Shown: piece by piece, positions 4,320 through 59,257 of the stretch
Position numbering within the stretch: the stretch's first letter is position 1
Layout: each line of letters opens with the position of its first letter
Source of the DNA: an uncultured Candidatus Saccharibacteria bacterium
GTDB lineage: Bacteria > Patescibacteriota > Minisyncoccia > Phycocordibacterales > UBA9973
DNA: 64,000 nt
Direction: 5' to 3'
NCBI GenBank assembly: GCA_964474375.1
Contig: CAYYSG010000001.1
Coordinates: 18,559 to 82,558, forward strand
Position numbers and translations under genes: made by a program
The notes under the pieces: generated by a model
Databases searched by the model: none
Told to the model about the DNA's origin: nothing
The model's input: the letters and a program-made list of their open reading frames with translations, nothing else

Positions 4320-4327
4320 CACCCTGT

Positions 4328-4462: not shown

Positions 4463-4467
4463 TAATT

Positions 4468-9824: not shown

Positions 9825-9827
9825 AAG

Positions 9828-10775: not shown

Positions 10776-10786
10776 ATTATAGCATA

Positions 10787-13262: not shown

Positions 13263-13263
13263 A

Positions 13264-13692: not shown

Positions 13693-13733
13693 ACTAATAT
13701 AAGTATATCATAAGAAAATCCCAGAATATATTA

Positions 13734-14405: not shown

Positions 14406-14408
14406 AAA

Positions 14409-19578: not shown

Positions 19579-20184
19579 ATGATAGAAAAATACACTGCAA
19601 AACAATATGATTTGCCAGAACTAACTGGTATTTCCAAAAAAAGTATAGAAGAACATATGAAACTATACGAAGGCTATGTTAAACACGCCAACCTAATAAA
19701 AGAAAAGCTAGAATCAATCCCCGCGGACGATGCCTATACTCGCACCGAACTCATGCGACGGTTTTCTTTCGAGTTCTGTGGTATGCGTAATCACGAGCTT
19801 TATTTTTGGTCTCTTGTTGGTGGGGCTAGTACTATTCCAAATGGTTCAAAGTTAGAATCAGACATCATTCGTGATTTTGGTAGCATAGATGATTTTTTTA
19901 TAAAATTAAAAGAAATAGCTTTGACTCGGTCCGTTGGTTGGGCAATGTTGTCCTACGATGTAACATTCGACCACTTGACTTTGTCTTGGGTGGATGAACA
20001 GCATATAGGGCAACTCATGAACGTGTTCCCTGTTTATGCTATCGATATGTGGGAACATGCTTATGTTTACGACTATCAGCCTAGTGGTAAAAAGAATTAT
20101 CTTGAAGACTATATCAAAAATACAAATTTCGAATCTTTATCTAACCGCTACGAAGTTTTTTGCAGTAGCTTAAAACCTTTGTAA
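19579..20184 (+). CDS. sodA: Fe/Mn superoxide dismutase family protein
   Basis: NHELYFWS and AIDMWEHAYVYDY match the SOD metal-ligand motifs NHxxFW and DxWEHAYY. The N-terminal HH..HH motif is partly degenerate. Confidence 0.7.
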   Translation: MIEKYTAKQYDLPELTGISKKSIEEHMKLYEGYVKHANLIKEKLESIPADDAYTRTELMRRFSFEFCGMRNHELYFWSLVGGASTIPNGSKLESDIIRDFGSIDDFFIKLKEIALTRSVGWAMLSYDVTFDHLTLSWVDEQHIGQLMNVFPVYAIDMWEHAYVYDYQPSGKKNYLEDYIKNTNFESLSNRYEVFCSSLKPL

Positions 20185-31740: not shown

Positions 31741-31743
31741 GGT

Positions 31744-32964: not shown

Positions 32965-34705
32965 GCAAGACTTCGTCTATTGTTGTTTCACCTTTTGCGG
33001 CTAAGAATATTCCGTCTTCAAGCATAGTCATCATACCTTCAACCTTAGCTTGCTTCTCTATTTCATCGTCTGTTGCTCCTTTTAGAATGAGCTCTTTTAT
33101 TGTCGGTGACATTACCAGAGCTTCATGTAGTCCAACACGTCCTTTGTATCCAGTGTCGGATTCTGTTGGGTTTAGTGGCCTATAAAAAGGTATTTCTCTC
33201 CATGTATCATTTGGGCCTATTATGTTTTCTGCTTTTAGGAAGCCGAGCATTCTGTCGAGGTCTACGAATTTAGAAAGTTCCATTAGTTCCGCATCATTCA
33301 TGATGTACTTTTCTTTTTCTCCACCAAGTCTTCGTACTAGTCTTTGAGCAATGATGATTTTTAAAGTTGAAACTAATAGAAATGCTGGTATTCCCATATC
33401 TAAGAATCTCGGAATAGCCCCAGCTGCACTATTGGTGTGGATAGTTGATAGTACAAGGTGTCCAGTCAATGCAGCATTCACGGCGATACCGGCTGTTTCT
33501 CCATCACGAATTTCCCCTACCATAACAATGTCCGGGTCTTGACGAAGAAGAGTTCTTAGTCCGTTAGCAAAAGTCAGCCCAATTTCTGATCTTACTTGAG
33601 TTTGGTTTATGCGAGGCATTTGGTATTCTACCGGGTCTTCAACTGTCGAAATATTTACTTCCGGAGTATTTACCATGTCGAGCATTGTATATAGTGTGGT
33701 TGATTTACCGGATCCTGTTGGTCCGGCTGCTATGATCATTCCGATGTGTTGCTTTAGAGCATTGTGAGCTCTTTCCAGTGAATTTCCATGGAAACCAAGC
33801 CCTTCGAGAGTAAATCCTTTGGAATTTTCTTTCAGAATACGAATAACGACTTTTTCTCCATAGTACACAGGCAAGGTTGATACACGAAATGATACTTTCA
33901 TTCCGTCTTGTTCTATTTTGAACCGCCCGTCTTGTGGCAGTCTTTTTTCATCAAGTTTAAGGTTAGACAAGACTTTGATACGAGCAACTATACCATTGGC
34001 GGTTTTCTTCGGAAGAACCATGGCATCACGCAAGAGTCCATCGATACGGTACCGTACGTAGAATGCATCCTCGTGGGGTTCCATATGGATATCACTGGAT
34101 CCTTGGAGTATAGCGTGGGATACTAGCGAATCCACGATTTTTACTATTGGTAGGTCCTCGGCTAATTCCTTTAAATCCTTTTCGTTTTCAACAATTTCAC
34201 CATCTTTGGAGACTTTTAAAGATTTTACATTGCCGGATTCTTTGTCGATTATGTCTTGGAATTCATCATGTAGTGTTTTTTTATATAAAGTCAGTGCGTG
34301 TGTGATAGAAGCACTGTCGGTTAGTCTTGGCAATAGTTTGACACCTAGTTTTTTCTTTATAGAGTCCAGCACCACTAGGTCGTCCACATCAAGCATCGCG
34401 ACTTCTAGTCCTTTGTCTTGCTTTTTATAAGCCACAATGTTGTGTGTTCGGACGATTGGCTCTGGAATAAGAGACAAGACTTCGATGTCGATATCGACAT
34501 TTTCAAGTGAAAGAAAAGGTATACCCAGTACGTAACCAACTGATTTTTGGAGTTCATCTTCTTTTATTTTACCTTGCGAAACTAGAACTTTTCCCAGAGT
34601 ATCCCCTGTTTTTTCAGATTGTTTCTCGGCTTTTTCTATATCGCCGGGTGTAACAAGATTTGATTCAAGTAGAAATTTTTTTAAAGCTTCTGGTGATACG
34701 TACAT
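32948..34705 (-). CDS. pilB: Type IV pilus assembly ATPase PilB (GspE family)
   Basis: Walker A GPTGSGKSTTLY and RQDPDIVMVGEIRD, plus an N-terminal GspII_E-like domain. Confidence 0.9.
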   Translation of the reverse strand: MYVSPEALKKFLLESNLVTPGDIEKAEKQSEKTGDTLGKVLVSQGKIKEDELQKSVGYVLGIPFLSLENVDIDIEVLSLIPEPIVRTHNIVAYKKQDKGLEVAMLDVDDLVVLDSIKKKLGVKLLPRLTDSASITHALTLYKKTLHDEFQDIIDKESGNVKSLKVSKDGEIVENEKDLKELAEDLPIVKIVDSLVSHAILQGSSDIHMEPHEDAFYVRYRIDGLLRDAMVLPKKTANGIVARIKVLSNLKLDEKRLPQDGRFKIEQDGMKVSFRVSTLPVYYGEKVVIRILKENSKGFTLEGLGFHGNSLERAHNALKQHIGMIIAAGPTGSGKSTTLYTMLDMVNTPEVNISTVEDPVEYQMPRINQTQVRSEIGLTFANGLRTLLRQDPDIVMVGEIRDGETAGIAVNAALTGHLVLSTIHTNSAAGAIPRFLDMGIPAFLLVSTLKIIIAQRLVRRLGGEKEKYIMNDAELMELSKFVDLDRMLGFLKAENIIGPNDTWREIPFYRPLNPTESDTGYKGRVGLHEALVMSPTIKELILKGATDDEIEKQAKVEGMMTMLEDGIFLAAKGETTIDEVLRVINE

Positions 34706-43219: not shown

Positions 43220-43315
43220 TTATTATACCAATTTGCAGTATTATTTTGCAATAAAATAATGTTTGTGGTAAAGTCATTACATTATTACAAGATAATATTT
43301 GAAGTACAAATTAAT

Positions 43316-44623
43316 ATGTTAGACCTCAAAACCATGAAAACGGCTCTTGAAGCCCTGGGTGAAGAGCGCAAAATCCCAAGAGATAAGATTATTGACGCCA
43401 TTGAGCAAGCTTTTGCTGCCGCTTATAAGAAAGATTACGGTAAAAAAGGCCAAATTGTTCGCGCCCATATGGACGTGGACACTGGAAAACTCGATTTTTA
43501 CCAAGTAAAAATCGTAGTTGACGATACATTGGTTCGTATAGTTAACCAAGAAACAGAACACGAAGACTATGATGAGTCAGATACTCGCGTGCGTTACAAC
43601 GAAGAACACCATATCTTTATTCAAGATGCGGAAATGATCAAATCTGGTGTAAAACTAGAAGATGAAATCGTTTTTGCTCTTGAACCACAGGATGATTTTA
43701 GTCGTATTGCTGCCCAAACCGCAAAACAAGTCATAATGCAAAAAATCCGCGAAGCGGAACAAGCTGTTATTTTAGAAGAATTCGGAGCTAAAGAAGGTGA
43801 CATTATAACAGGTACAGTAGACAAGATAGAACGCGGAATGGTTTCTATTTCTATTGGTAGAGCTTTTGCTATCCTAAGTCCAGAAGAACAAATCCCAGGC
43901 GAATTCTATCGTCGTGGTGAAAGAATCCGTGCTTATTTATACAAGGTAGAACAAGGCCCAAGAGGTATTTCTATTCGAGTATCGCGTACTCACCCAAAGC
44001 TAATTGAAGCTTTGTTTGTAATGGAATCCCCTGAAATCGCTAGCGGTACAGTGGAAATTCGTGCTATTGCTCGCGAAGCCGGTGCTCGTACAAAAATTGC
44101 TGTAGTCTCACATGACCCAAGTATTGATCCGGTTGGATCATGTGTAGGACAAAAAGGTGTCCGTGTTACTGCTGTTATGAGTGAAATTCATGGCGAAAAA
44201 ATAGACATTATTCCATGGGATGAAGACCCTGCAGTATTTGTAGCAAATGCTCTAGCCCCAGCACGCGTCTTTGATATTTTGATTGATGAAAACGAACATA
44301 CTGCCGAAGTAGATGTTCCTGAAGATCAATTGTCATTAGCTATTGGGCGTGGCGGACAAAATGTACGTCTTGCTGCAAAGCTAACTGGCTGGAAAATCGA
44401 CATAAAAGGAAGTGAAGCTCAATACACATCCCCAGAAGAAATCCTAGAAGAAACATTTGAAGAATTTTCAGAAGAAGCTCAAGAAATTGCGAATGTTAGT
44501 ACAGAAGAACTAAATTCTCTTGAAGAAGTTAGTGATGCAGTAGAAGCATATGAAACACAAGAATTACCTGCCGACAAAGAGGTTACCGAAAACAATTTGG
44601 AAGACAGTGAATTAAAAGATTAA
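43316..44623 (+). CDS. nusA: Transcription termination/antitermination factor NusA
   Basis: N-terminal MLDLKTMKTALEALGEERKIPRDKIIDAIEQAF, S1 and KH domains (GRGGQNVRLAAKLTGWKIDI), and an acidic C-terminus. The ORF is open from 43259. Confidence 0.85.
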   Translation: MLDLKTMKTALEALGEERKIPRDKIIDAIEQAFAAAYKKDYGKKGQIVRAHMDVDTGKLDFYQVKIVVDDTLVRIVNQETEHEDYDESDTRVRYNEEHHIFIQDAEMIKSGVKLEDEIVFALEPQDDFSRIAAQTAKQVIMQKIREAEQAVILEEFGAKEGDIITGTVDKIERGMVSISIGRAFAILSPEEQIPGEFYRRGERIRAYLYKVEQGPRGISIRVSRTHPKLIEALFVMESPEIASGTVEIRAIAREAGARTKIAVVSHDPSIDPVGSCVGQKGVRVTAVMSEIHGEKIDIIPWDEDPAVFVANALAPARVFDILIDENEHTAEVDVPEDQLSLAIGRGGQNVRLAAKLTGWKIDIKGSEAQYTSPEEILEETFEEFSEEAQEIANVSTEELNSLEEVSDAVEAYETQELPADKEVTENNLEDSELKD

Positions 44624-44646
44624 TTAATGGATATTATCGTTATATA

Positions 44647-44674
44647 ACCTATAACCTAATACCTATAACCTAAT
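44647..44674 (+). repeat. Perfect tandem duplication of 14-bp unit acctataacctaat immediately upstream of ppa start codon
   Basis: 44647..44660 equals 44661..44674. Contains four TAACCT-like heptamers, and related TAACCT repeats sit upstream of tig (45353..45378). Confidence 0.8.
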
Positions 44675-44675
44675 A

Positions 44676-45266
44676 ATGGCTAATATAAACATAAAACCAA
44701 GTAAATACATGTACAATTTACAACATGTATTACCTGCTTTTGCTGATGAGGACAAAAAAATAGTAAATGGACTTATTGAAATTACTCCAAATACTATTAA
44801 TAAATACGAATATATTACCGAAGCCGGTATTTTAAAACTCGACCGCGTAGGATATTCATCATTGGCTTACCCTATAACGTATGGACTTATTCCAAGAACT
44901 TGGGACGAAGACAGTGATTTGCTAGATGTAGTAGTGGCAAATGTTACAGAAGAATTAATACCAGGATCTTTAGCAGAACTGCGTGTTATCGGTATTATGA
45001 AGTTCGAAGATGGTGGCGAAAGAGATGACAAAGTCATAACAGTGTTAAATGATGACAAAAGAGTTGAACACATCACCAAAGTCGAAGACCTGGGTGAACA
45101 CTGGAAAAAAGAAATAGAACACTATTTCGAATACTACAAACATCTTAAAAAGCCTGGTACTTGTAAGCCCCTTGGTTTCTTTGATGCGGACGAAGCCGTA
45201 AAGATTATAAAAGAGTGCGAAGAAAGATACGAAAAAGATTACGCACCGAAATTAGAAGCAAATTAA
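44676..45266 (+). CDS. ppa: Inorganic pyrophosphatase (family I)
   Basis: EIPKGS-like core with DEDSDLLDVVV and YGLIPRTW-type motifs. 196 aa. Confidence 0.75.
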   Translation: MANINIKPSKYMYNLQHVLPAFADEDKKIVNGLIEITPNTINKYEYITEAGILKLDRVGYSSLAYPITYGLIPRTWDEDSDLLDVVVANVTEELIPGSLAELRVIGIMKFEDGGERDDKVITVLNDDKRVEHITKVEDLGEHWKKEIEHYFEYYKHLKKPGTCKPLGFFDADEAVKIIKECEERYEKDYAPKLEAN

Positions 45267-45383
45267 TATTGTTTTTAATACATATCAATACTCCGCTCGC
45301 CAGTCCTCGCTATGCTGCGGAACCTCGCTTTGTATTATATGTATTTTAAAACTATAACCTGTAACCTTTAACCTAATAAATAT

Positions 45384-46466
45384 ATGTCAGCACAATATAC
45401 AAAAAAAGATTTAGAAAATTCCCAAATTGAAATCACTGGAGTTCTTCCTTATGAAGATTTTATAACTCATGAAATAGCTGCTTTGGAAAGAATCGCAAAA
45501 ACTTTGAAAATAGACGGTTTCCGCGAAGGCTCTGTGCCTCCTCATATTGCGAAACAACACATTCAAGATTTAGCATTACTTGAAGCTATGGCTGAAGAAG
45601 CAATGATGAAAGCCTATGGTGACATTCTTACTACTTATGCTCCGGACGCAATTGGTCGCCCAGACATACGTATTACTAAAATAGCTCGGGACAATCCTTT
45701 GGAATTCAAAGTCACTGTTACTGTAATGCCTGAAGTCAAACTACCAGACTATAAAAAAATAGCTAAAGAAGAATGCAAAGATAAAAAAGAAGTTTCTCTT
45801 ACGGAAGAAGAAGTAGACAAATCAGTAGAAGAGCTTCGCAAATTACGTGCTCGAAGTTCTATGAGTCACACACATGACGATGGTACAGTCCACGAAGGTC
45901 CGGACCACGATGCCGAAGGGAAAGAAAAAGAACACGAGTTACCAGAATTACCTGAACTAAACGACGAATTTGCGCAAAGTTTTGGTGACCAGTTCAAAAC
46001 CATGGATGATTTGCGCAGTAAAGTTCGCGAAAACATGCTCATGGAAAAGAAAATCATTGAAGAGGATAAAATCCGTGTAAAAATAGCTGAAAGAATAACT
46101 GACGATACCAAAGTCAAACTACCGGACATGCTGATCGATGGTGAAGTTGAAAGAATGGCTTACCAAATGGAGTCAGACTTAGCTAACAGCGGACTAACTT
46201 TGGAAGACTATGCAAAGAACATCGGCAAAACTCTGGAAGATTTGAAAAAAGACTGGCGCCCAAATGCTGAAAAAAGAGTAATCATGCAGTTGGTTCTAGA
46301 CGAAATAGCTAAAAAGGAAGACCTAAAGCCTGAAAAGGAAAAAGTTGACCTAGAAGTTGCCCAGCTAAAAGCCCACTATAAAGATATTGACGAAAATCGC
46401 GCTCGTATATATGTAGAATCCCAGCTCAAGAACGAACAAGTCTTTAAATGGCTAATAGAGCAATAA
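45384..46466 (+). CDS. tig: Trigger factor lacking the PPIase domain
   Basis: N-terminal ribosome-binding signature DGFREGSVPPHI (GFRxGxxP) and C-domain start ELPELNDEFAQSFG, separated by only a ~60-aa acidic/His-rich linker. Followed by clpP. Confidence 0.7.
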   Translation: MSAQYTKKDLENSQIEITGVLPYEDFITHEIAALERIAKTLKIDGFREGSVPPHIAKQHIQDLALLEAMAEEAMMKAYGDILTTYAPDAIGRPDIRITKIARDNPLEFKVTVTVMPEVKLPDYKKIAKEECKDKKEVSLTEEEVDKSVEELRKLRARSSMSHTHDDGTVHEGPDHDAEGKEKEHELPELPELNDEFAQSFGDQFKTMDDLRSKVRENMLMEKKIIEEDKIRVKIAERITDDTKVKLPDMLIDGEVERMAYQMESDLANSGLTLEDYAKNIGKTLEDLKKDWRPNAEKRVIMQLVLDEIAKKEDLKPEKEKVDLEVAQLKAHYKDIDENRARIYVESQLKNEQVFKWLIEQ

Positions 46467-46485
46467 AACTAAAATGACAAAACAA

Positions 46486-46520
46486 AATTCCCCAGTGTAT
46501 AGCTGGGGAATTTTGTTTTG
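46486..46520 (+). terminator. Rho-independent terminator after tig
   Basis: aattccccag-tgtatag-ctggggaatt hairpin plus ttttgtttt. Confidence 0.7.
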
Positions 46521-46560
46521 TGCTATACTAGTTTAGTTAACCAATAAAATATACATATAT

Positions 46561-47148
46561 ATGAGTTATTTAATCCCAACAGTTATAGAAAAGTCCCCTC
46601 AGGGCGAAAGAGCCTACGACATATATTCACGTCTTTTGAACGACAGAATCGTGTTTCTAGGGGGTGCTATTAATGACGAAGTAGCCAATGTGGTCATTGC
46701 TCAGCTACTGCACTTGGCACACCAAGACCCAAAAAAAGACATTTCTCTATATATTAACTCCCCTGGTGGCCACGTTTCAGCGGGGCTAGCTATTATGGAC
46801 ACTATGAACTTTATCAAGCCAGATGTGTCTACTATTTGTGTAGGCATGGCGGCATCTATGGGGGCAATGCTACTGTCAGCGGGAGCAAAAGGTAAAAGAT
46901 ACGCCCTGCCGAATAGTGAAGTTATGATACACCAAGTTCTGGGCGGCACCGAAGGTCAAGCTAGTGATATTGAAATAGCAGCCAAGCATATCATAGCTAC
47001 CAAGCACAATTTGATTAAAATACTCTCTAAAAATACCGGAAAATCAGCCTCTCAGGTGGAAAAAGACATGGACAGAGACAACTGGATGGGGTCCGATGAA
47101 GCCAAAAAATACGGTATCATCGACGAAGTCATAACTAAAAGTAAATAA
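46561..47148 (+). CDS. clpP: ATP-dependent Clp protease proteolytic subunit
   Basis: Catalytic Ser (GMAASMGA) and His (MIHQ) motifs. 195 aa. Confidence 0.95.
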
Positions 47149-47168
47149 TATTCCTGTTTTTTGACAAA

Positions 47169-47194
47169 AAGCTCGCAAAATTGCGGGCTTTTTG
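47169..47194 (+). terminator. Terminator after clpP
   Basis: agctcgcaa..ttgcgggct imperfect hairpin plus ttttt. Confidence 0.5.
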
Positions 47195-47254
47195 TTACTA
47201 TGCGTATAGACAGTTTCGACAGATACATTATTTATTTAATTAAAAGAGTACAGT

Positions 47255-48784
47255 ATGGGAGTAATTACAGTCATCATACTTGTGTTTCTTGGTGTGGCTA
47301 TAGGCTTTGGTTTCGGGTATTTTATCCGCAGAGCCGTGTCATTAGGCAAAAAAGGATCAATCGAGCTTGAAATCAAGCAAATGATGATCGCCGCTAAAGA
47401 AGAAGCACAAAAGCTCATTGATGCCGGTAAGCGCGATGCTGAAAAGATTCGCGACGAAATCAAAAATGAGGATCGCAAAATGCGAGAAGGTTTAAAAGAA
47501 GAAGTGGACCGTTTGCACAAAAAAGAATCACTTCTAGACGAAAGAGCTCGTGATATGGATAACCAAACCATCGAGCTAACAAACAAAAGTGAAGAGATTC
47601 ACAAAATCAAAATGTCGCTCGAGGCACTAAAAGTAGAGCAAGATAAAAAAATAGAAGAAATTGCAAAACTAACAATAGACGAAGCTCGCGGGGAAATAAT
47701 AAAACGCGCCGAACTAACTAGTGAAGAAGATTTGATGGTTCGCCTACAAAAGCTTGATAAAGAAAATCAAGAAAAGCTAGCGACTCGTGCAAAAGAAATT
47801 CTGGCTACATCTATTCAAAGACTGGCATCTTCTACAGCTAGTGAAATGATGACAACTAACGTTGCAATACCGAATGATGATATCAAAGGTAAAGTTATCG
47901 GTAAAGAAGGTCGCAACATTCGTGCATTCGAACAAGCTGCCGGTGTTGAACTAATAGTAGACGATGCACCAGGCGTAATAGTTGTTTCATCGTTTGATCC
48001 AGTTCGTCGTCAAATCGCACGCATTGCACTTGAAAACCTTATTCTAGATGGGCGCATTCAGCCAGCTAAAATAGAAGAAGAAATAGAAAAAGCTAAAAAG
48101 GACATTAACAATATAATAAAACAAAAAGGTGAACAAGCTGTAATGGAACTAGGTATCCATAATCTTGATCCACGTATTATAGCTATAGTAGGTAGGCTTT
48201 ATTTCCGAACTAGTTATGGTCAAAATGTTTTGCAACACAGTATTGAAATGGGTCACGTTGCTGCAATGATAGCTAGTGAAATCGGCGCCGATGTGCAAAT
48301 AGCCAAAGCCGGTGCACTAGTGCACGATATCGGTAAAGCGCTCGACCACGAAGTCGAAGGTACACATATACAAATAGGTATGCGTATACTGGAAAAATTC
48401 GGCGCTGACAAACGTATCATTACTGCTATGAAGTCACACCATGATGACTGGCCTCATGAAACAGTAGAAGCAGTGATAGTTCAAACAGCTGATATTATTT
48501 CTGGGTCTCGCCCTGGTGCACGTCGCGACACAGCAGAAAATTATTTGAAACGTTTGCAAGATTTAGAAGCTACTGCAATGTCATTCGATGGTGTAGAAAA
48601 AGTTTGGGCATTGTCCGCTGGACGTGAAGTACGAGTATTCGTTTCACCTGCTAACGTTACTGATGTTGCAGCCCGCAGTATGGCACGCGACATAGCAAAA
48701 AAGATCGAAGCTGACCTAACCTACCCTGGTGAAATTCGCGTAGTCTTGATTCGAGAAAATAGAATAGTAGAATTTGCTCGGTAA
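47255..48784 (+). CDS. rny: Ribonuclease Y
   Basis: N-terminal TM, coiled-coil, KH motif GKVIGKEGRNIR, and HD domain (HSIEMGHVAAMIA...VHDIGK). Confidence 0.9.
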   Translation: MGVITVIILVFLGVAIGFGFGYFIRRAVSLGKKGSIELEIKQMMIAAKEEAQKLIDAGKRDAEKIRDEIKNEDRKMREGLKEEVDRLHKKESLLDERARDMDNQTIELTNKSEEIHKIKMSLEALKVEQDKKIEEIAKLTIDEARGEIIKRAELTSEEDLMVRLQKLDKENQEKLATRAKEILATSIQRLASSTASEMMTTNVAIPNDDIKGKVIGKEGRNIRAFEQAAGVELIVDDAPGVIVVSSFDPVRRQIARIALENLILDGRIQPAKIEEEIEKAKKDINNIIKQKGEQAVMELGIHNLDPRIIAIVGRLYFRTSYGQNVLQHSIEMGHVAAMIASEIGADVQIAKAGALVHDIGKALDHEVEGTHIQIGMRILEKFGADKRIITAMKSHHDDWPHETVEAVIVQTADIISGSRPGARRDTAENYLKRLQDLEATAMSFDGVEKVWALSAGREVRVFVSPANVTDVAARSMARDIAKKIEADLTYPGEIRVVLIRENRIVEFAR

Positions 48785-48824
48785 TAGAACTCAAAATACA
48801 ATTTTTACTGGTTACAAATCAAAA

Positions 48825-48860
48825 CACCCGCAAAGTTTACAAAACTTTGCGGGTGTTTTG
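48825..48860 (+). terminator. Rho-independent terminator after rny
   Basis: cacccgcaaagttt-aca-aaactttgcgggtg hairpin plus tttt. Confidence 0.7.
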
Positions 48861-48876
48861 TCAATACATAAATTCC

Positions 48877-48906
48877 TTGCATCCAGAAAAAGCCTTGCGG
48901 TATAAT
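48877..48906 (+). promoter_or_regulatory. Candidate sigma70-like promoter for hup (TTGCAT-18nt-TATAAT)
   Basis: ttgcat at 48877..48882 and tataat at 48901..48906. The 18-nt spacer is slightly long. Confidence 0.35.
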
Positions 48907-48975
48907 GGTACTTAAGAAGATCTTTCATCTTGTCGCACAGGGTCGTATTTTTAATAGTCAATTATATACATACAC

Positions 48976-49251
48976 ATGAACAAGCAAGCACTTGCTGATT
49001 ATGTGCATTCTAAAATTGGTGGTACCAAAGTTGCAGCTGAAGAGCTAGTCAACGGTATCATTGACGAGATTGTAGGCACTTTGAGAAAAGGTGACGAAGT
49101 CTCAATAGCTGGACTCGGTATTTTTTCAGTAAAAGACCGCCCAGCTCGTAATGCACGTAACCCAAAGACTGGGGAAACTGTAAAGGTTCCTAAGACTCGC
49201 GTTCCAAAGTTCCGAGCTGCAAAAGCTCTAAAAGACGCAGTCGCTAAATAG
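48976..49251 (+). CDS. hup: Nucleoid-associated protein HU
   Basis: 91 aa. GLGIFSVKDRPARNARNPKTGETVKV is the HU/IHF beta-arm signature. Confidence 0.9.
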   Translation: MNKQALADYVHSKIGGTKVAAEELVNGIIDEIVGTLRKGDEVSIAGLGIFSVKDRPARNARNPKTGETVKVPKTRVPKFRAAKALKDAVAK

Positions 49252-49376
49252 TCTTGTGTTTAATAAAGAAATTGGAACCTCTATCACCAATTTCTTCCTC
49301 AAAACCCCCTTTCTCTGCCCACCTGGCAGATAAAGGGGGTTTTGTTATATAATAAATTAAACACATCATTATTTTT

Positions 49377-49799
49377 ATGAAAAAACATCCAACGCTTGGT
49401 AGAAAAACCATACATCATTTGGTCCCCCAGGCACGAATAAGCGATTTTTATGAAACAAGGTTTCATTTACCTAAAAATAAGTTAAAACTATGGGAACTAA
49501 AGCACGCAGCATGGCACGTACTTTTTAAACTCAAGACTATTAGTGAGATAATTAATTACCTCGACAAGAATAAAAACCCTTATGGTTTCGGAGGTGAAGC
49601 CTGGAACCTGCTTTTTAAGTCTAAAACCGCCAAACAAGCTAAAAATTTACTGATTCGTGTTAGACGGGCAGTTCGCAAACATTATCTAGGTCTTGAGTTT
49701 GACTTACTTTTAAAGGAGAAAGTTAAAAGGTATCACAAAAAGTCTGGCAAGAAAAGAATTGATCTTTATTTGAACTATAAATTCAAAAAAACAGCTTAA
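49377..49799 (+). CDS. Hypothetical basic protein
   Basis: 140-aa ORF, Lys/Arg-rich, no recognisable motif, followed by a strong terminator. Confidence 0.4.
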   Translation: MKKHPTLGRKTIHHLVPQARISDFYETRFHLPKNKLKLWELKHAAWHVLFKLKTISEIINYLDKNKNPYGFGGEAWNLLFKSKTAKQAKNLLIRVRRAVRKHYLGLEFDLLLKEKVKRYHKKSGKKRIDLYLNYKFKKTA

Positions 49800-49802
49800 A
49801 TC

Positions 49803-49834
49803 TAAAAAAAGACCCTGCATTGCAGGGTCTTTGT
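49803..49834. terminator. Bidirectional terminator
   Basis: agaccctgca-t-tgcagggtct hairpin. An A run upstream gives a T run on the minus strand. Confidence 0.6.
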
Positions 49835-49854
49835 CGGTATAAATCTTTATTAGA

Positions 49855-50040
49855 CTATTCATCTAGCTCGTATTTGTCCTTGTTTCTGTCATAAATAGTT
49901 TTGGGTTTGTGGATTAACCTCCTTCTTCTGTCGCTGGTAAAATGTTTTCTGGAGGATGATTTTATTCCTTTGGCTTTGAGTTTGTTTCTTTTTCTTTCCA
50001 TTTTGTAGATTATTTTGATTCTAGAATAGCATAAATACAT
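49855..50040 (-). CDS. Small highly basic protein, ribosomal-protein-like composition but family unrecognised
   Basis: ...MERKRNKLKAKGIKSSSRKHFTSDRRRRLIHKPK; the likely start is an internal Met. Confidence 0.25.
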   Translation of the reverse strand: MYLCYSRIKIIYKMERKRNKLKAKGIKSSSRKHFTSDRRRRLIHKPKTIYDRNKDKYELDE

Positions 50041-50072
50041 AAAAAAATAACCCTCTCGGGCTATTTTTTATG

Positions 50073-50143
50073 TGCAGGATAGGAGAATCGAACTCCTGTG
50101 TACTGCTTGGAAGGCAGTCATTCTACCACTAAATTAATCCTGC
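50073..50143 (-). tRNA. tRNA-Gly (anticodon TCC)
   Basis: Reverse complement GCAGGATTAATTTAGTGGTAGAATGACTGCCTTCCAAGCAGTACACAGGAGTTCGATTCTCCTATCCTGCA. 7-bp acceptor stem. Anticodon loop CTTCCAA. T-loop GGAGTTCGATTCTCC. Confidence 0.85.
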
Positions 50144-50198
50144 ATTGTTGCCAGTCTAATTTATATAGCTTATTGCTGCTTTTGCGGCGAGACAATAA

Positions 50199-50217
50199 AC
50201 CACTAAATTAATCCTGC
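50199..50217 (-). repeat. 19-bp exact duplicate of the 5' end of tRNA-Gly(TCC) (acceptor stem plus D-arm), 55 bp beyond the intact gene
   Basis: accactaaattaatcctgc at 50125..50143 (within the tRNA) and again at 50199..50217. Flanking bases differ. Confidence 0.8.
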
Positions 50218-50283
50218 GTGATTGGAACGTATTCGTATATTACCCTAAATAAACAAAAAAATAAAGCCCCCTAACCTATTTAA

Positions 50284-50309
50284 ATAAAAAAGCCCCATTT
50301 CTAGGGCTT
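50284..50309 (-). terminator. Terminator downstream of 50328..50780
   Basis: agccc-catttcta-gggct hairpin. The minus strand is followed by a T-run. Confidence 0.5.
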
Positions 50310-50327
50310 TAGTAAAAAATATTGTAC

Positions 50328-50780
50328 TTATTGAGTTTTTTCCCTGGAACGAAGGATTCTTAAGAATTCTTCGTATCTACCATCCTGTTTACCAGGACGG
50401 TCGATTGCCCGACCTTCTGATTTAAAATATGGGTCAAGCAGGTACTCATGTTTTTGATTTAAAATACCAAATAATTTCCCTACCCATGTTCGACTTTGCC
50501 TGACACGGATCAAATAAAGACTTTTCATGGTTTCTTTATCCAAAGGCCTATTTACAGTTTTTATTAGGATATTTACTCCCTCACTGTGCCTGTGGCAGTC
50601 TATTATTTCTGCAAAATACTCCTTTTGGGTAGTCTTCGTGTCATATTCGCAAGAGGTTTCTTCTATTACAATGTTGTAAAAAAAATCCTCTTCTTGGTAG
50701 CTTCGTATCGTTAAGGAATCTTTTCTTAGGTCGTGCCTAATTAGTTCTTTTGCTTCTTTGATTTCTTGTTGTGTACTCAT
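50328..50780 (-). CDS. Hypothetical protein in tRNA island
   Basis: 150-aa ORF, no recognisable motifs. Confidence 0.4.
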   Translation of the reverse strand: MSTQQEIKEAKELIRHDLRKDSLTIRSYQEEDFFYNIVIEETSCEYDTKTTQKEYFAEIIDCHRHSEGVNILIKTVNRPLDKETMKSLYLIRVRQSRTWVGKLFGILNQKHEYLLDPYFKSEGRAIDRPGKQDGRYEEFLRILRSREKTQ

Positions 50781-50847
50781 GTTGATAATTTTTTAAAGGT
50801 TAAACCCAGGTTTCCCTGGGTTTTGAAAATGTTTAGTGGTTGTTGAT

Positions 50848-51408
50848 TTAGCTACTCGCCATCTCGCGAGGATCGTTTTTAGGGTTTAATGCCCCAGTTT
50901 CGTTTTCATGTGCGGGTAGTCCAAGGATTTCTACGATTTCATCTTTTGTAGCATAGAGCTTTAGCTTTTCTGCGATTTCGTCGTTAGAAAGATTTACTTC
51001 TTGTCCAGTCACTTTTCGCCATAGCTTTATTCGGAAGTCTGGGTCACCATTCTTTCGGCTTGTTGCTTTGGCTAAGAAATTTGGGTCTACTACGTAGTCG
51101 CCTTTTTTCCTTTTGTTTTTTGCATTAAATCCATCTGTGCCCCAAAAGGGTATCAGTTTGAATTTTTCTGTAATTTCTGTCGACAAATCATTTTTTGCTT
51201 TCACAAAAATGTTTCTTTCTACTCCATTACTTTTACCGATTTGCATAATTATCGGTACTTCTTCGGGTATGGTACCCATGTTTACCTTTGTTTTGCCTGG
51301 TCCGATGACTTTATAGCTCTCGCTAACAAGCATTTCCTCGGCTTTGTTTGTTGTTGGATTTGGGAACATTATCCCCAATTCTGCTGATTTTTTTTGACTT
51401 TTTCTCAT
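50848..51408 (-). CDS. Hypothetical protein in tRNA island
   Basis: 186-aa ORF, no recognisable motifs. Confidence 0.4.
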   Translation of the reverse strand: MRKSQKKSAELGIMFPNPTTNKAEEMLVSESYKVIGPGKTKVNMGTIPEEVPIIMQIGKSNGVERNIFVKAKNDLSTEITEKFKLIPFWGTDGFNAKNKRKKGDYVVDPNFLAKATSRKNGDPDFRIKLWRKVTGQEVNLSNDEIAEKLKLYATKDEIVEILGLPAHENETGALNPKNDPREMASS

Positions 51409-51502
51409 ATATGTTTAAAACTTGTTTGTATATTAACCTATTTTTAGAATTTTGTCAAAAATGCAAAAAGTCACATAAAATGTGACTTTTTGCATAATAT
51501 TG

Positions 51503-51573
51503 TCGGGGTGCAGGGAATCGAACCCTGATCTCACGGTCCCAAACCGCGTATACTACCACTGTACTACACCCCG
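51503..51573 (-). tRNA. tRNA-Pro (anticodon TGG)
   Basis: Reverse complement CGGGGTGTAGTACAGTGGTAGTATACGCGGTTTGGGACCGTGAGATCAGGGTTCGATTCCCTGCACCCCGA. C1-G72 pair typical of tRNA-Pro. Anticodon loop TTTGGGA. Confidence 0.85.
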
Positions 51574-51688
51574 ATAGTTATAGCAGTTTAGCATACTTTC
51601 CTATTTTTTCAATGCCTATTTGTTTTTGGATTTATTTATGGTATAAATAAGATTAATTTCAACACAATTTCAATATAATATTCAGCTT

Positions 51689-52138
51689 ATGGTAAACAAT
51701 TTCAACTATCAGACCAATGTTTCCTTTATTCTTTTAGAGGACAAAAAACCAAAAAACAAAGAGCTATTTGCTATTTGTGAAGTCAAAGACATTGCTAATT
51801 ATGGCAATTCTTTCAATTATGCACCGGTATTCTGGTTCCCTAATTGCAAGATTACTGAAAAAGAAGCTAAAATCTTGAGACTAGAGAAGTACGTCAATGA
51901 GTCCAGAAAACATCCCGACGGTTATATAATTTCGGGATCTAAGTCAACTCGTCAGAGTTTTGCAAGAGCGGTAGTTTTTGCGATTAGATGGTTTGAAAAA
52001 ATTCATCGAGAAAAAAAACCGGTAATTGCTAGTCAGCCTAAACAAAACCAACGTTTCCCTGGCCCAGCGTCTCAGGCTTTTGTTTCAGGAAAAGCCCAGT
52101 TTTCAAGAAAAAGAACTTCTTCGTCTAAAAAGAAGTAA
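51689..52138 (+). CDS. Hypothetical protein
   Basis: 149-aa ORF with a basic Ser/Lys-rich C-terminus, followed by a terminator. Confidence 0.4.
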   Translation: MVNNFNYQTNVSFILLEDKKPKNKELFAICEVKDIANYGNSFNYAPVFWFPNCKITEKEAKILRLEKYVNESRKHPDGYIISGSKSTRQSFARAVVFAIRWFEKIHREKKPVIASQPKQNQRFPGPASQAFVSGKAQFSRKRTSSSKKK

Positions 52139-52155
52139 ACTTTAAATCATTTTTA

Positions 52156-52183
52156 AAAACGCCATGTTTGTGGCGTTTTTTTA
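52156..52183 (+). terminator. Rho-independent terminator
   Basis: acgcca-tgtttg-tggcgt hairpin plus ttttttt. Confidence 0.65.
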
Positions 52184-52714
52184 TTAGACACATCTTTTCT
52201 GCTCTAACAGACATATTTTCTATTAGACATTTATAAAAGACATTAGTAAATGTCTGATATAAGCTATTGCGTCTTTTATTAAATTAATGTCCTATATACC
52301 CTAAAAATACCCTTATTTTTTAACAAAACTGTGCATAAAGTTGGGGATTAAGGGTATAACTGCCCTATTTTAATGTCTTTTATAATGGACAAAGTATGTT
52401 TTTTATGTCTTTTATAACGGACATTGATGTCTATTAGTTCTATAAAAAGCTTATAAAATAAGGCTTTTATAACGGACATTATCTTTTTGTATAACAAAAC
52501 AATATTTTAATAATGGAAATGGGTCTTTTTTTGTGTCAAATGTGTTTCACGTGAAACATATTTATCTGTTACACACCTGCCTTGCCGGTAGGCAGGTGAA
52601 ACTTTAGCTAAAATGGCATAAAACCAGTTATTTGTTTCATGTGGAACATTGATATACGGCAAGTATGGTCTATTTATAAGCTGTGTATTGTGCCACGTGT
52701 AACACCAGTATATA

Positions 52715-53125
52715 ATGGTTTGGATGCCAAAGGTATTTACTTCAAATACTCAAAAAATAGGTAAACTAGGTGAAGAATTAGCCAAAAGGTTTCTCATGAA
52801 ACACGGTTATTCTGTCTTAGAGGAAAATTATACTAAAAAGTATGGTGAAATAGACCTAATAGCTAAAAAGGATGGAATAACACATTTCATAGAGGTTAAA
52901 AGCATCGTTTCACATGAAACTAGTAATGCTGTGCCACGTGAAACATCTAACTATGATCCTTTGTCGAATGTGCACCCAGGTAAATTACGAAGATTATCCA
53001 GGGTTATACAGGTGTATCTAGTTACACATGAAACACTCAATTGGCAATTTGATGTAATTACTGTAAAAATTGATGAAAAGAATAGGGTAGGTCGAGTTAC
53101 TCATATAAAAGATATTGTTATATAG
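52715..53125 (+). CDS. yraN: YraN/UPF0102 family endonuclease-like protein
   Basis: GEELAKRFLMKHGYSVLEENY..GEIDLIAKKDGITHFIEVK...QFDVITV, the conserved UPF0102 core. Contains peptide repeats HETSN/RETSN/HETLN encoded by a repeated DNA motif. Confidence 0.7.
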   Translation: MVWMPKVFTSNTQKIGKLGEELAKRFLMKHGYSVLEENYTKKYGEIDLIAKKDGITHFIEVKSIVSHETSNAVPRETSNYDPLSNVHPGKLRRLSRVIQVYLVTHETLNWQFDVITVKIDEKNRVGRVTHIKDIVI

Positions 53126-53181
53126 TTGTTACGCATGAAACAGAAAATCCCCGTAATAGGGGATTTTCTTAATGGTTTTTG

Positions 53182-53252
53182 TGCGGGTAAGGAGAATCGA
53201 ACTCCTGTCTCATCCTTGGCAAGGACGTGTCCTACCACTAAACGATACCCGC
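53182..53252 (-). tRNA. tRNA-Gly (anticodon GCC)
   Basis: Reverse complement GCGGGTATCGTTTAGTGGTAGGACACGTCCTTGCCAAGGATGAGACAGGAGTTCGATTCTCCTTACCCGCA. Anticodon loop TTGCCAA. Confidence 0.85.
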
Positions 53253-53341
53253 ATGGTTACACAAGAAAATAATAGCATAAATATTTAAAAAAACAAATAT
53301 AACTGTATTTTTTAACTATTATTTGCTATAGTCTAGTCTGA

Positions 53342-53413
53342 GCATCCGTCGTTCAACGGATAGGACATCGGTCTTCGGAACCGAGAATGTGGGTTCGATT
53401 CCTGCCGGATGCA
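53342..53413 (+). tRNA. tRNA-Arg (anticodon TCG)
   Basis: GCATCCGTCGTTCAACGGATAGGACATCGGTCTTCGGAACCGAGAATGTGGGTTCGATTCCTGCCGGATGCA. GCATCCG acceptor as in bacterial tRNA-Arg. Anticodon loop CTTCGGA. Confidence 0.8.
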
Positions 53414-53437
53414 CAATTATAAATTCATTATACAAAT

Positions 53438-53671
53438 ATGAAAAGACTATATAGAAGCGATAAAAATAAAGTAATTGCTGGAGTAATGGGTGGAATAGGT
53501 GAATATGCAAATGTTGACCCTGTAGTTATTCGTGCATTTTATTTGGCTATTACTATCTTTAGTGCAGTTTTCCCTGGGATAATTGTTTATTTATTGCTTA
53601 TACTAGTAATACCTAAACATCCTAATTTCAAGGAAGCTCATGCTGAAGAAGTAAATAATGCAAATCAATAA
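53438..53671 (+). CDS. PspC-domain membrane protein
   Basis: KRLYRSDKNKVIAGVMGGIGEYANVDPVVIRAFY is the PspC family signature, followed by a TM helix. Confidence 0.8.
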   Translation: MKRLYRSDKNKVIAGVMGGIGEYANVDPVVIRAFYLAITIFSAVFPGIIVYLLLILVIPKHPNFKEAHAEEVNNANQ

Positions 53672-55229
53672 TTCTCAAATCCCAGAATTTGTGCGATATG
53701 TTTCCGAGACTTTAGAGTCTGCGGGTTTTTCGGCATATTTAGTGGGCGGGTGTGTTAGGGATTTGTTAATAGGCCGAATTCCTAAAGACTTTGATATTAC
53801 GACAAGTGCCACGCCGGAAGACATTATAAAAATATTCCCAAAGACTGTATATGAAAATGTTTTTGGGACTGTTCTCGTGGTGGATGAAGATTTGAAAGAC
53901 TACGCAGATTCTAAAAAAACAGAAGGTCCTCGGGTCAGTTCACCAGACCATTCTGTTGTTTTTAAACCTGCTTCGTCTGATTTTGGTAATAATGATAGTG
54001 TTTTTAGTGTTGAAGTTACTCCTTTTCGCAAAGAAGGCAAGTATACTGACAGGCGTCATCCTGACAATGTAGTTTTTAGTAAAGATATAAACGATGATTT
54101 GTCTCGTCGCGATTTTACTATTAACGCCATGGCCTATAGGTTAGCTACTAATGAGTTAATTGATTTGTTTAATGGTCAGCCTGACCTAGATTCAAAGACC
54201 GTGCGTACTGTGGGTGACGCCGATGAAAGATTCAATGAAGACCCACTGCGTCTAATGCGAGCGGTTAGGTTTGCTACCGAGCTTGGTTTCAGTATAGAAG
54301 CAAATTCTATGATGGCTATTGCTGAAAATTCAGAATTACTCAAACATATTTCTATCGAAAGAATACGTGACGAGTTTATAAAAATAATAAATTCAGATTC
54401 TCCAGCCAGCGGCATTGAAATGCTTCGCAGGTTTAGTCTTTTGCCTTATATAATACCTGAATTACTAGACGGTGTAGGTTGTGTTCAGGGCGGGGCACAC
54501 AAATATGATGTTTACGAGCATTTGTTACATGCACTCCAGCATGCATCTGACAAAAAGTTTAGTTTTCATATTAGACTCTCCGCACTATTTCATGACATAG
54601 GTAAGCCTAAGAGTCGTAGAGAATCTAATGATAAGAATAAAAAACAATATACTTTCTATGGTCACGAAGTCATCGGTGCCAAAATGGCCAAGAAGATAAT
54701 GGAAAGAATGAAATTCCCTAAGAACGATGTGGATTTAGTTTATAAATTTGTACGTTATCATATGTTTTTCTCTGATACCGAAGTCATAACTCTTTCACCA
54801 GTTCGTCGTATGATAGCTAACGTTGGTGTGGATCATATTTGGGAACTCATGCAAATTAGGGAATGCGACCGTGTTGGTATGGCTAAAAATGAAGCCCCGT
54901 ATCGTCTGCGTAAATACCACGCCATGATTGAACAGGCTCTGCGTGACCCAATATCCGTAAAACAACTAAAAATCAATGGTGATAGTTTAAAAGACGCTGG
55001 TATTAACCCTGGTCCCAGAATGGGCTGGATACTATTGGCACTGCTAGAAGAAGTAATCGAAGACCCATCATTAAACACCGAAGAATATTTGCTAGGCAGG
55101 GTAGCAGTGTTAAACAAACTAACCGACATAGAGTTACGCAAATTAGGTGACGAAGCCCGCAGTAAAAAAGACGAACTAGAAGAAGAAGAAGTTTCCAGAC
55201 TACATGCGAAACATAATGTAAAAAAATAA
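53658..55229 (+). CDS. cca: CCA-adding tRNA nucleotidyltransferase with HD domain
   Basis: GGCVRDLLIGRIPKDFDITTSATPE (class II nucleotidyltransferase head) and HD motif LFHDIGKP. Confidence 0.85.
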   Translation: MQINNSQIPEFVRYVSETLESAGFSAYLVGGCVRDLLIGRIPKDFDITTSATPEDIIKIFPKTVYENVFGTVLVVDEDLKDYADSKKTEGPRVSSPDHSVVFKPASSDFGNNDSVFSVEVTPFRKEGKYTDRRHPDNVVFSKDINDDLSRRDFTINAMAYRLATNELIDLFNGQPDLDSKTVRTVGDADERFNEDPLRLMRAVRFATELGFSIEANSMMAIAENSELLKHISIERIRDEFIKIINSDSPASGIEMLRRFSLLPYIIPELLDGVGCVQGGAHKYDVYEHLLHALQHASDKKFSFHIRLSALFHDIGKPKSRRESNDKNKKQYTFYGHEVIGAKMAKKIMERMKFPKNDVDLVYKFVRYHMFFSDTEVITLSPVRRMIANVGVDHIWELMQIRECDRVGMAKNEAPYRLRKYHAMIEQALRDPISVKQLKINGDSLKDAGINPGPRMGWILLALLEEVIEDPSLNTEEYLLGRVAVLNKLTDIELRKLGDEARSKKDELEEEEVSRLHAKHNVKK

Positions 55230-58265: not shown

Positions 58266-58306
58266 AAATAAAAAATCCCCCTACGACATAGGGGGATTTT
58301 TTTTTA
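58266..58306. terminator. Bidirectional terminator
   Basis: aatccccct-acgacat-agggggatt hairpin flanked by an A run and T run. Confidence 0.7.
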
Positions 58307-59257
58307 TTTGCTACCTTTTGAATGGAATTTCTTATGGACGTCACGCAAATGAGCATCAGTCACATGGGTATATATTTGGGTTGTAGCAATATTCGCATGA
58401 CCGAGCATGGTTTGTACGGAACGAATGTCCGCACCGTTGGATAGTAAGTCAGTTGCAAATGAGTGACGCAGTACGTGCGGAGTAACGTGTTTCATTATTC
58501 CGGCTTTGGTAGCATAGTGTTTGATCATCCTTTGAATACTGCGCGGAGTTAAATCTTCTGCACCATTTTTACCAATAGGTTTTTTGTTCTTTGTTCCGTT
58601 TGACCTAACAGCAGTAAAAAGTCCACCACCTAAATCTTTTCTTTTTGCCAAGTATTCTTTTATGGCACTTCGGGCGTCAGGGGATATGAATACCACACGA
58701 ACTTTTTCACCTTTACCACGGATGGATATTTCATCTTTATCCAAATTAATATCTCTCGGCAAGGAACATAGTTCGGATACACGTAGCCCAGTTGAAAATA
58801 GCATTTCTAGTATGGCTTTATCGCGCAGGGATTTTTCATCTTTTTCATTTGGGGCTTCGAGGATTCTTTTTAGTTCGTCACCACTCAGGAAATCTATTTG
58901 TCTATCGCGCATTTTAGCTAAATCTATTTTGTCGCCAGCCATTGCACTAATTCCGCGCTTTCCCAAATATTTTAAAAACTGCCGAATAGCTATCAGGTAG
59001 TAATTCTGCGTGCTTTTTTTCATAGTATTACCGGCACTGCTACGTGGACCCATGCCTTTGGTTGACCCAGGTAGTCTATTTAAATATAAGCGAAATTCAC
59101 GAATCTTGTCTTCGGTAATGTCTGAAACATTTTTTAATTTACCCCAAGCTATGAATTTACCAATGTATCTATTATAGTTGTCGACTGTTTTTAGGCTGGA
59201 ACCACGTTCAATTTCCATGTGTTCCAAGAATTGTCTTAAAGCCGAATTTATTTCCAT
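58304..59257 (-). CDS. xerC: Tyrosine recombinase XerC/XerD family
   Basis: C-terminal catalytic region HVLRHSFATDLLSNGADIRSVQTMLGHANIATTQIYTHV (R..H..RH..Y). Confidence 0.85.
   Translation of the reverse strand: MEINSALRQFLEHMEIERGSSLKTVDNYNRYIGKFIAWGKLKNVSDITEDKIREFRLYLNRLPGSTKGMGPRSSAGNTMKKSTQNYYLIAIRQFLKYLGKRGISAMAGDKIDLAKMRDRQIDFLSGDELKRILEAPNEKDEKSLRDKAILEMLFSTGLRVSELCSLPRDINLDKDEISIRGKGEKVRVVFISPDARSAIKEYLAKRKDLGGGLFTAVRSNGTKNKKPIGKNGAEDLTPRSIQRMIKHYATKAGIMKHVTPHVLRHSFATDLLSNGADIRSVQTMLGHANIATTQIYTHVTDAHLRDVHKKFHSKGSK

Follow-up and report, generated by a model that had tools for sequence, protein, structure and literature searches.

The yraN locus

The DNA analyzed here (the window) is a stretch of 64,000 nucleotides from an uncultured member of the Patescibacteriota (contig CAYYSG010000001.1 of assembly GCA_964474375.1), and the subject of this report is a dense cluster of short palindromic sites that lies in and around its yraN gene, at positions 52543–53142. 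The window is chromosomal, as it carries dnaA and dnaN (1579–4196), rnpA–yidC–jag, four tRNAs, rpsO, pnp, nusA, tig, clpP, rny, and hup. The coding sequence of yraN (UPF0102) occupies 52724–53125 on the plus strand. The preliminary description of this DNA, which was made from the letters alone, had recognized the open reading frame (ORF) as yraN, and the assignment to the UPF0102/YraN family is borne out by a Pfam match (PF02021, E = 7e-20 over the full profile), the ortholog alignment, and the translation. Because all orthologs begin with MPKVF, the true start is probably the ATG at 52724 (MPKVF...). In 25 homologs, Gly44, Glu45, and Asp47 and Phe58, Glu60, Val61, and Lys62, which belong to the GEIDLI and F-x-E-V-K motifs of the family, are invariant.

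A cluster of parS-like sites in and around yraN

The preliminary description had reported about seven copies of a CAC(G/A)TGAAAC motif. The repetition is real: the 10-mer CACRTGAAAC has six exact matches in the window at five places, one of which is palindromic, and all are within 52544–53034. Shuffled sequences gave an expectation of 0.19 per 64 kb, and none of the 100 shuffles reached six. This 10-mer is the core of a longer 16-bp palindrome. When its 14-mer GTTTCACGTGAAAC was searched with up to three mismatches, eight of the 11 matches in the window fell within 52544–53141 (whole-window expectation, 3.0), and the three matches outside the cluster (13948, 34500, and 55884; three mismatches each) are at the level expected from the shuffles. 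An independent repeat search returned a single family of eight 17-nt copies at 52543, 52633, 52689, 52788, 52906, 52930, 53020, and 53127. The positions given earlier were correct within a few bases, but the sites at ~52692 and ~53136 each deviate from the 10-mer by one mismatch (CACGTGTAAC and CGCATGAAAC), and the fourth copy inside the gene (52788–52803) and a copy split by a hairpin (52568–52602) had been missed.

The cluster thus consists of eight parS-like copies with 0–3 mismatches, three upstream of yraN, four within it, and one past its stop codon, packed in 600 bp (one site per 75 bp). The first copy, the "master" site parS-1 (52543–52558), is the perfect 16-bp palindrome TGTTTCACGTGAAACA in the intergenic region, 166 bp 5′ of the yraN ATG. 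It agrees at 16/16 positions with TGTTNCACGTGAAACA, the chromosomal parS consensus to which ParB/Spo0J binds (PMC7022226). It also has a guanine at half-site position 1 (G1) and an adenine at half-site position 6 (A6), the bases that set parS apart from the Noc-binding site (PMC7383237). The seven other copies have 1–3 mismatches in the 14-bp core. Of the two further upstream copies, parS-2 (52633–52648, TGTTTCATGTGGAACA; two mismatches in the 14-bp core) is intergenic, and parS-3 (52689–52704, TGTGCCACGTGTAACA; three mismatches) is located 20 bp 5′ of the ATG. Inside yraN, parS-4 (52788–52803, GGTTTCTCATGAAACA) is read as F-L-M-K-H, whereas parS-5 (52906–52921, CGTTTCACATGAAACT) and parS-6 (52930–52945, TGTGCCACGTGAAACA), read as V-S-H-E-T and V-P-R-E-T, are units 1 and 2 of a pair of 24-bp in-frame tandem units, and parS-7 (53020–53035, AGTTACACATGAAACA) is read as V-T-H-E-T in the loop preceding the W-QFDV strand. 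The last copy, parS-8 (53127–53142, TGTTACGCATGAAACA; three mismatches), begins 2 bp past the yraN stop codon and abuts a terminator-like hairpin (53142–53169). Only the 14–16-bp core palindrome is common to the copies, and their flanks are unrelated. The earlier idea of an array of binding sites has held up, in that the 16-mer equals the canonical parS site, and the cluster can be read as a putative array of protein-binding sites.

A possible disrupted parS was read from the sequence at 52568–52602, where the half-sites GTTACAC and GTGAAAC surround a GC-rich hairpin (stem ACCTGCC/GGCAGGT). The interrupting hairpin is 21 bp long (ACCTGCC-TTGCCGGTA-GGCAGGT) and its surroundings are AT-rich. Similar GC hairpins are found beside the second upstream parS in relatives L016, L075, and L005.

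The peptides S-HETSN-A, P-RETSN-Y, and T-HETLN-W, to which the preliminary description had assigned the copies in the gene, are all present in the translation. A protein model was obtained with AlphaFold for the 136-aa ORF from the start at 52715, and residue numbers in this report follow that ORF. Its mean predicted local distance difference test (pLDDT) score is 82, and residues 68–79, with pLDDT < 50, stand out in an otherwise confident model. In the model, VSHETSNAVPRETSN falls in the coil after the EVKS strand, and the parS-coded peptides Val65–Thr69 and Val73–Thr77 sit in coil at or within this low-pLDDT stretch, while the F-L-M-K-H site (parS-4) forms the end of a confident helix. The repeat-encoded residues had been placed in a variable region of YraN, and the ortholog alignment agrees that this part is variable and prone to insertion: the loop has from 0 to >60 extra residues among the orthologs, and these are built of parS-type units. 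The peptide repeats are a by-product of selection on the DNA, accommodated in a low-confidence and probably flexible loop of the model. As a separate feature of the gene, a 30-bp direct repeat at 52833–52892 (CTAAAAAGTATGGTGAAATAGACCTAATAG / CTAAAAAGGATGGAATAACACATTTCATAG, 70% identical) spans two consecutive β-strands with GEIDLIA and HFIEVK, and it may be a matter of chance or an ancient internal duplication.

Conservation of the cluster in related genomes

With a profile made from 22 YraN homologs, 80 loci of Nomurabacteria/Paceibacterota-type genomes were collected, each including flanks of at most 10 kb per side; the window brings the total to 81 loci. Some of the source-named YraN homologs are labeled Candidatus Paceibacterota. 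Sites were counted in a zone that begins 2700 bp upstream of the yraN start and ends 300 bp beyond the matched yraN region. With up to two mismatches, this zone contained 395 sites, or 1.6 per kb, and the 1.07 Mb outside it had seven, or 0.0065 per kb, which amounts to a 245-fold enrichment. The perfect 14-mer occurs in 56 of the 81 loci, and all its copies but one precede the yraN start by 16–180 bp. In the relatives, 104 intergenic sites again give the consensus TGTTTCACGTGAAACA, and G1 is invariant and A6 predominant in the lineage sites. A typical genome has five sites (up to two mismatches) or seven (up to three mismatches) over ~1.1 kb, and the arrays comprise 5–14 sites over 0.5–2.6 kb across the loci.

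The CCA-adding enzyme gene (cca) is located divergently upstream of yraN in 68 of the 80 loci. In the relatives, cca also carries sites: its N terminus has one (K-E-V-S-H-V-T), and a variable loop has one to several. Where it adjoins the conserved noncoding module upstream of yraN (see below), cca accounts for at least 79 of the sites. Individual sites (the one at +65, that at the cca N terminus, and the master site) are at fixed positions across genomes whose YraN proteins are 44–73% identical.

These data bear on two explanations that the preliminary description had put forward. One is an operator array, in which a dimeric regulator would recognize the CACGTG-centered palindromes and control yraN or its neighbors. 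The closeness of the strongest site to the yraN start codon in the relatives (16–180 bp) would suit an operator, and ParB-type complexes repress nearby promoters in some species (PMC7022226). However, the motif equals parS over all 16 bp, beyond the CACGTG core, most copies are in the coding sequence of two unrelated genes or past a stop codon, the Pfam searches gave no adjacent regulator gene in the window, and arrays of 5–14 sites over 0.5–2.6 kb would be left unexplained. Control by a nearby helix-turn-helix regulator is therefore very unlikely, and we have abandoned it. The other is a mobile or recombinogenic short repeat that spread in and around yraN. The differing copy number between close relatives, the tandem units, and the copy interrupted by a GC hairpin are in line with such an element, whereas the restriction of similarity to the 14–16-bp palindrome with unrelated flanks, the merely chance-level matches in the remaining 63 kb of the window, the scarcity of sites in the 1.07 Mb of flanks, and the fixed positions of the +65, cca N-terminal, and master sites despite the divergence of YraN all speak against it, so that propagation of a repeat element has to be considered highly improbable. 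Membership in the dispersed repeats of the repetitive extragenic palindrome or miniature inverted-repeat transposable element (REP/MITE) type was rejected as well, since no dispersal beyond the cluster was found and the similarity is confined to the core.

Selection on DNA inside coding sequence

The consensus parS has a TGA in one frame and is readable only as V-S-R-E-T or F-H-V-K. Among 149 sites inside yraN genes, only the two stop-free frames are used (84 and 65 sites), and they appear as the peptides V-S/T/P-R/H-E-T and F-L-V/M-K-H. For the codon analysis, the motifs were defined at the protein level, and then the codons were tabulated against background usage; the counts across relatives are not phylogenetically independent, but their direction is uniform and always toward parS. 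In V-[STP]-[RH]-E-T, Val is encoded by GTT in 44/50 cases (background, 34%), Glu by GAA in 49/50, Arg by CGN in 26/26 and never by AGR (background, 47%), and Thr by ACA in 35/50 (background, 35%). The F-L-V/M-K-H site at approximately +65, the position of parS-4, is conserved in 65 of the 81 loci scanned. Its Leu is encoded by CTC in 62/78 and CTT in 16/78 cases and never by TTR (backgrounds of 12% for CTC and 45% for TTR), and its Val is GTG in 40/40 (background, 21%). Since only stop-free frames are used and synonymous codons are pushed toward parS, the pattern of codons argues that selection acts on the DNA sequence and not on the protein. The 245-fold enrichment at the orthologous locus, together with these parS-directed synonymous codons, is the signature of purifying selection on the DNA across the related genomes.

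The converse explanation, that YraN requires V-S-R-E-T-type peptides and that the DNA similarity merely follows, draws on the recurrence of the peptide motif in orthologs. It leaves the synonymous positions, which are fixed to parS against the genomic codon bias, without a cause; the same DNA motif is also read in a second frame and is present in intergenic sequence and in the gene of an unrelated protein, cca, and the peptides are in a low-confidence loop of freely varying length. We assign next to no probability to it. The same observations uphold the preliminary view of a DNA-level repeat rather than selection on the protein. According to that description, orthologs that carry the same residues without the flanking intergenic copies would have contradicted this view; the orthologs with the same residues also have the flanking intergenic copies, and the view stands.

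A candidate origin next to the cluster

The cumulative GC skew of the window declines over the first ~43 kb, stays level until ~52 kb, and climbs thereafter. Its minimum, accompanied by a flip of the gene strand, is at 43–53 kb, and the minus strand carries nearly all genes at 6–43 kb. Within 43–53 kb, the largest intergenic region (52139–52723) is directly 5′ of the array. Of 45 relatives, 36 have negative skew on the left side of the locus and positive skew on the right side. Within the intergenic region, an AT-rich noncoding module (52325–52540) that is conserved in the alignment contains a DnaA-box-like sequence, TGTGCATAA (52330–52338), and ATGTCTTTTATAAYGGACAT repeats, and it is a candidate origin-associated element. 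Of 74 relatives, 62 have a perfect DnaA box, TGTGGATAA, in one orientation at 130–290 bp 5′ of yraN (41-fold enrichment), mostly at 125–127 bp from the master parS. The block between this DnaA box and the master parS is conserved at the nucleotide level, and the AT-rich noncoding stretch as a whole spans 52139–52540 in the window and about −300 to −1 of yraN in L010, L023, L075, and others. Based on the switch in skew sign, the strand flip, and the conserved adjacent DnaA box, the array is probably at or beside oriC, which would then be unlinked from dnaA. In the window, dnaA and dnaN are 48 kb from the array, and just one of the 80 relatives has dnaA in the 10-kb flanks of the locus.

Several smaller features of this region were noted. 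A degenerate second DnaA box is located 12 bp past the perfect box in the conserved upstream block. The ATGTCTTTTATAAYGGACAT repeat family (TGTC-N10-GACA dyad) has three to four copies (52223–52244, 52372–52393, 52404–52425, and 52459–52480) and is not a standard DnaA box, and the shorter elements ATAAAGGACAT and AATAAAAGACAT of the upstream region are conserved in the relatives according to the alignment. No Rfam family was found in the conserved upstream block, where only the flanking tRNAs were matched. The basal unwinding system consists of a DnaA box, a spacer of up to 16 bp, and at least three NAN trios (PMC8287927); no DnaA-trio unwinding element was recognized by eye beside the conserved DnaA box, and the origin therefore stays a candidate. 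At the other end of the window, the dnaN–dnaA region (1579–4470) is on the minus strand and divergent from rnpA–yidC–jag. The GC skew has no switch there, and the genes to its right run against an origin at that place.

Copy-number changes and rearranged flanks

The distances from site to site peak at 16, 24, and 27 bp, the first of which corresponds to abutting sites, and the copy number varies through tandem units that keep the frame and are 24 or 27 bp long. The window has two units of 24 bp (IVSHETSN / AVPRETSN), L001 has three units of 24 bp, L047 has four units of 27 bp, and the cca loop of L010 has two units of 27 bp.

The flanks are rearranged in the window and in L001, the relative closest to it: cca shares the orientation of yraN and follows it downstream, and HU and RNase Y have switched sides. 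In L002, cca is still upstream but more distant, with an extra ORF between. The local rearrangement covers 43259–55229; most relatives (L004–L080 were compared) have HU and RNase Y downstream of yraN on the opposite strand, whereas in the window, HU and rny are upstream on the plus strand, and a tRNA-Gly/tRNA-Arg pair, pspC, and cca are downstream. The displaced cca of the window has no match to the motif even at four mismatches. With up to two mismatches, yraN and its flanks contain six sites in the window, nine in L001, and eight in L002, compared with a median of three where cca adjoins the module. The lack of sites in the displaced cca and the higher number in yraN and its flanks suggest that some upkeep of site number takes place near the upstream module, although the rearranged genomes are few and closely related.

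Proposed function of the cluster

The 16-bp sequence is parS; its copies form a cluster, are conserved at the orthologous locus, and are under selection at the DNA level where they fall inside genes. Here, we propose, with a probability of roughly 80%, that the cluster is the origin-proximal chromosomal parS centromere array that loads ParB in a Paceibacterota/Nomurabacteria-type bacterium of the candidate phyla radiation (CPR). The ParABS biology behind this mechanism is taken from PMC7022226, PMC7053999, PMC8367383, and PMC8494293. ParB dimers would recognize the palindromes, close as clamps bound to cytidine triphosphate (CTP), and slide onto the neighboring DNA, so that one partition complex builds up and is acted on by ParA and/or SMC. 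This complex would mark the origin region for segregation and SMC loading, and multiple adjacent sites would raise the rate and robustness of ParB loading. Because the genomes have little intergenic DNA, the sites would have been written into coding sequence. In permissive protein loops (YraN, and the CCA-adding enzyme in relatives), whole parS units may have been inserted and tandemly duplicated in frame, giving the HETSN-type repeats, whereas in a constrained part of the protein, such as the helix end with F-L-V/M-K-H, parS may be approximated by codon choice.

Several observations weigh against this proposal. Seven of the eight copies are off by 1–3 bases, and parS-4 has a T at position 6, where the adenine helps to distinguish parS from the Noc site (PMC7383237). 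Because of these deviations, some copies may bind weakly or as half-sites. The origin has the status of a candidate, assigned from the skew, the bias in gene strand, and one or two DnaA boxes; DnaA boxes are also found at dnaA–dnaN, both between the genes (2708, 2715, and 2825) and upstream of dnaA (4251 and 4262), where they probably reflect autoregulation or a relic origin. The partner proteins were not found either. Pfam searches of essentially all larger ORFs and a motif scan gave no parA or parB in the 64-kb window. Within 10 kb of the array in the 80 relatives, tblastn with Spo0J and Soj gave no match at E ≤ 1, and profile hidden Markov models (HMMs) of ParB (109 sequences) and ParA (74 sequences) had zero matches. 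Likewise, a DNA-pattern scan of metagenomes for AT-rich ParB genes returned 120 loci with 109 ParB ORFs, none of them attributable to Paceibacterota. When the window and the 80 loci were scanned for GERRxRA and KGGVGKT, all matches were spurious, a database search with Spo0J returned Bacillus proteins only, and nothing on parS or ParB in CPR/Patescibacteria was found in the searchable literature. The presence of a ParB as the reader protein of this lineage is thus something we infer, and it is strongly implied by the exact canonical palindrome, which is kept even at synonymous positions.

The missing partner leaves room for a different reader, namely, another ParB-superfamily member or an unrelated protein (e.g., a Noc-like nucleoid-occlusion factor or an origin-binding protein) in place of the canonical segregation ParB. 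Besides the failure to find parAB near the array in 81 genomes or the ParB of the lineage, the fixed spacing of 125–127 bp to the DnaA box hints at an origin-linked role that such a protein might have. On the other hand, the consensus retains the parS-specific G1 and A6, unlike the Noc site, and Noc is restricted to Firmicutes, with sites that are genome-wide and not clustered at the origin (PMC7383237). A different reader is accordingly unlikely on the present sequences. As for the class of Noc-binding sites (NBS), it was rejected on the invariant G1, the predominant A6, and the clustered rather than dispersed arrangement.

The centromere reading can tentatively be extended, at somewhat less than even odds, to a picture of Paceibacterota in which origin and centromere form one compact, co-inherited module that is unlinked from dnaA and parAB and whose sites spread into the loops of the flanking genes. 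The module may comprise cca, tRNAs, the DnaA box, the conserved block of ~125 bp, the master parS, and yraN. Centromere strength would be kept by in-frame tandem duplication of parS units into the loops of whichever housekeeping genes flank the module; in the lineage of the window, the displacement of cca would have been followed by decay of the cca sites and gain of sites in yraN. A variant in which canonical ParB is absent and another protein reads the sites of the module is unlikely.

If the centromere proposal is right, the cluster provides a concrete putative centromere, and probably an origin landmark, for a large uncultivated group of ultra-small bacteria whose cell cycle is essentially unstudied. 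The locus also appears to hold two overlapping codes, as an array of binding sites dictates codon choice and inserted peptide repeats in housekeeping proteins. For practical purposes, the cca–yraN module of parS sites and DnaA box could help to orient and check metagenome-assembled genomes of the lineage, and annotations should not treat the V-S-R-E-T-type repeats of YraN and of CCA-adding enzymes as protein motifs. Should the compact-module picture be true as well, it would clearly exemplify how a chromosome element that acts in cis drives the evolution of protein length and sequence.

Other features of the window

Just upstream of the noncoding module, the segment 50328–52138 has three ORFs without a Pfam family (150, 186, and 149 aa), with tRNA-Gly(tcc) and tRNA-Pro interspersed among them. 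The 150-aa ORF is the only one of the three with a match, in one of the 80 relatives, and the segment may be a small inserted element. A tyrosine recombinase gene (58304–59257; Phage_integrase and SAM-like N-terminal domain), probably of the XerC/D type, is located ~5 kb from the parS array. The region 8697–18662 is a block resembling conjugation or type IV secretion genes, with an SLT transglycosylase, a TraG-type P-loop ATPase (10787–12649), a PrgI family protein (13264–13692), and a 1417-aa ORF without a family match. The window further contains the competence protein gene comEC (20148–21455) and type IV pilus genes (29938–34705), including a T2SSE ATPase (32948–34705) and a T2SSF platform protein (31744–32964). 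ComEC and type IV pilus genes are expected for a DNA-uptake apparatus as in CPR bacteria.

Comparison with known systems

The parS/Spo0J system of Bacillus subtilis uses the same 16-bp palindrome, TGTTNCACGTGAAACA, as the array of the window, and its sites are origin-proximal. Most B. subtilis parS sites are inside coding sequences. The B. subtilis Spo0J sequence contains N-V-P-R-E-T, and this V-P-R-E-T is the place of the first-described parS within spo0J, which is thus read in the frame that parS-6 uses here. The B. subtilis chromosome has 10 single parS sites, eight of which are in the origin domain (PMC7022226). In contrast to these single sites, the locus described here has eight copies in 600 bp, which are partly in-frame tandem units that create peptide repeats, and while parAB is origin-linked in B. 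subtilis, none is present within 52 kb upstream or 11 kb downstream of this array.

Myxococcus xanthus has 22 parS sites in ~3.1 kb beside parAB (PMC3899335). The present cluster is likewise a dense array of canonical parS near a candidate origin, but it is approximately twofold denser (one site per 75 bp), is not beside parAB, and is largely within two housekeeping genes across the lineage. In Pseudomonas aeruginosa, a small near-consensus cluster at oriC (parS1–4) suffices for segregation, and degenerate sites and half-sites are bound too (PMC4368675 and PMC7022226). The binding of degenerate sites in that species is relevant to the copies with 1–3 mismatches in the window, although the half-sites of P. 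aeruginosa are scattered genome-wide, whereas the degenerate copies here are confined to the cluster.

Centromere arrays of plasmids and phages, e.g., sopC of the F plasmid, consist of tandemly iterated binding sites that nucleate one partition complex. The parS of pSM19035 is a plasmid centromere repeat array as well (PMC2441792). The present array resembles both in its iterated binding sites, but those arrays have other sequences and reader proteins and are noncoding and extrachromosomal, whereas this locus is chromosomal. What is unusual here is the density of the sites, their embedding in two housekeeping genes with in-frame expansion, and the lack of linkage to parAB or dnaA; the known mechanism suffices to account for the array.

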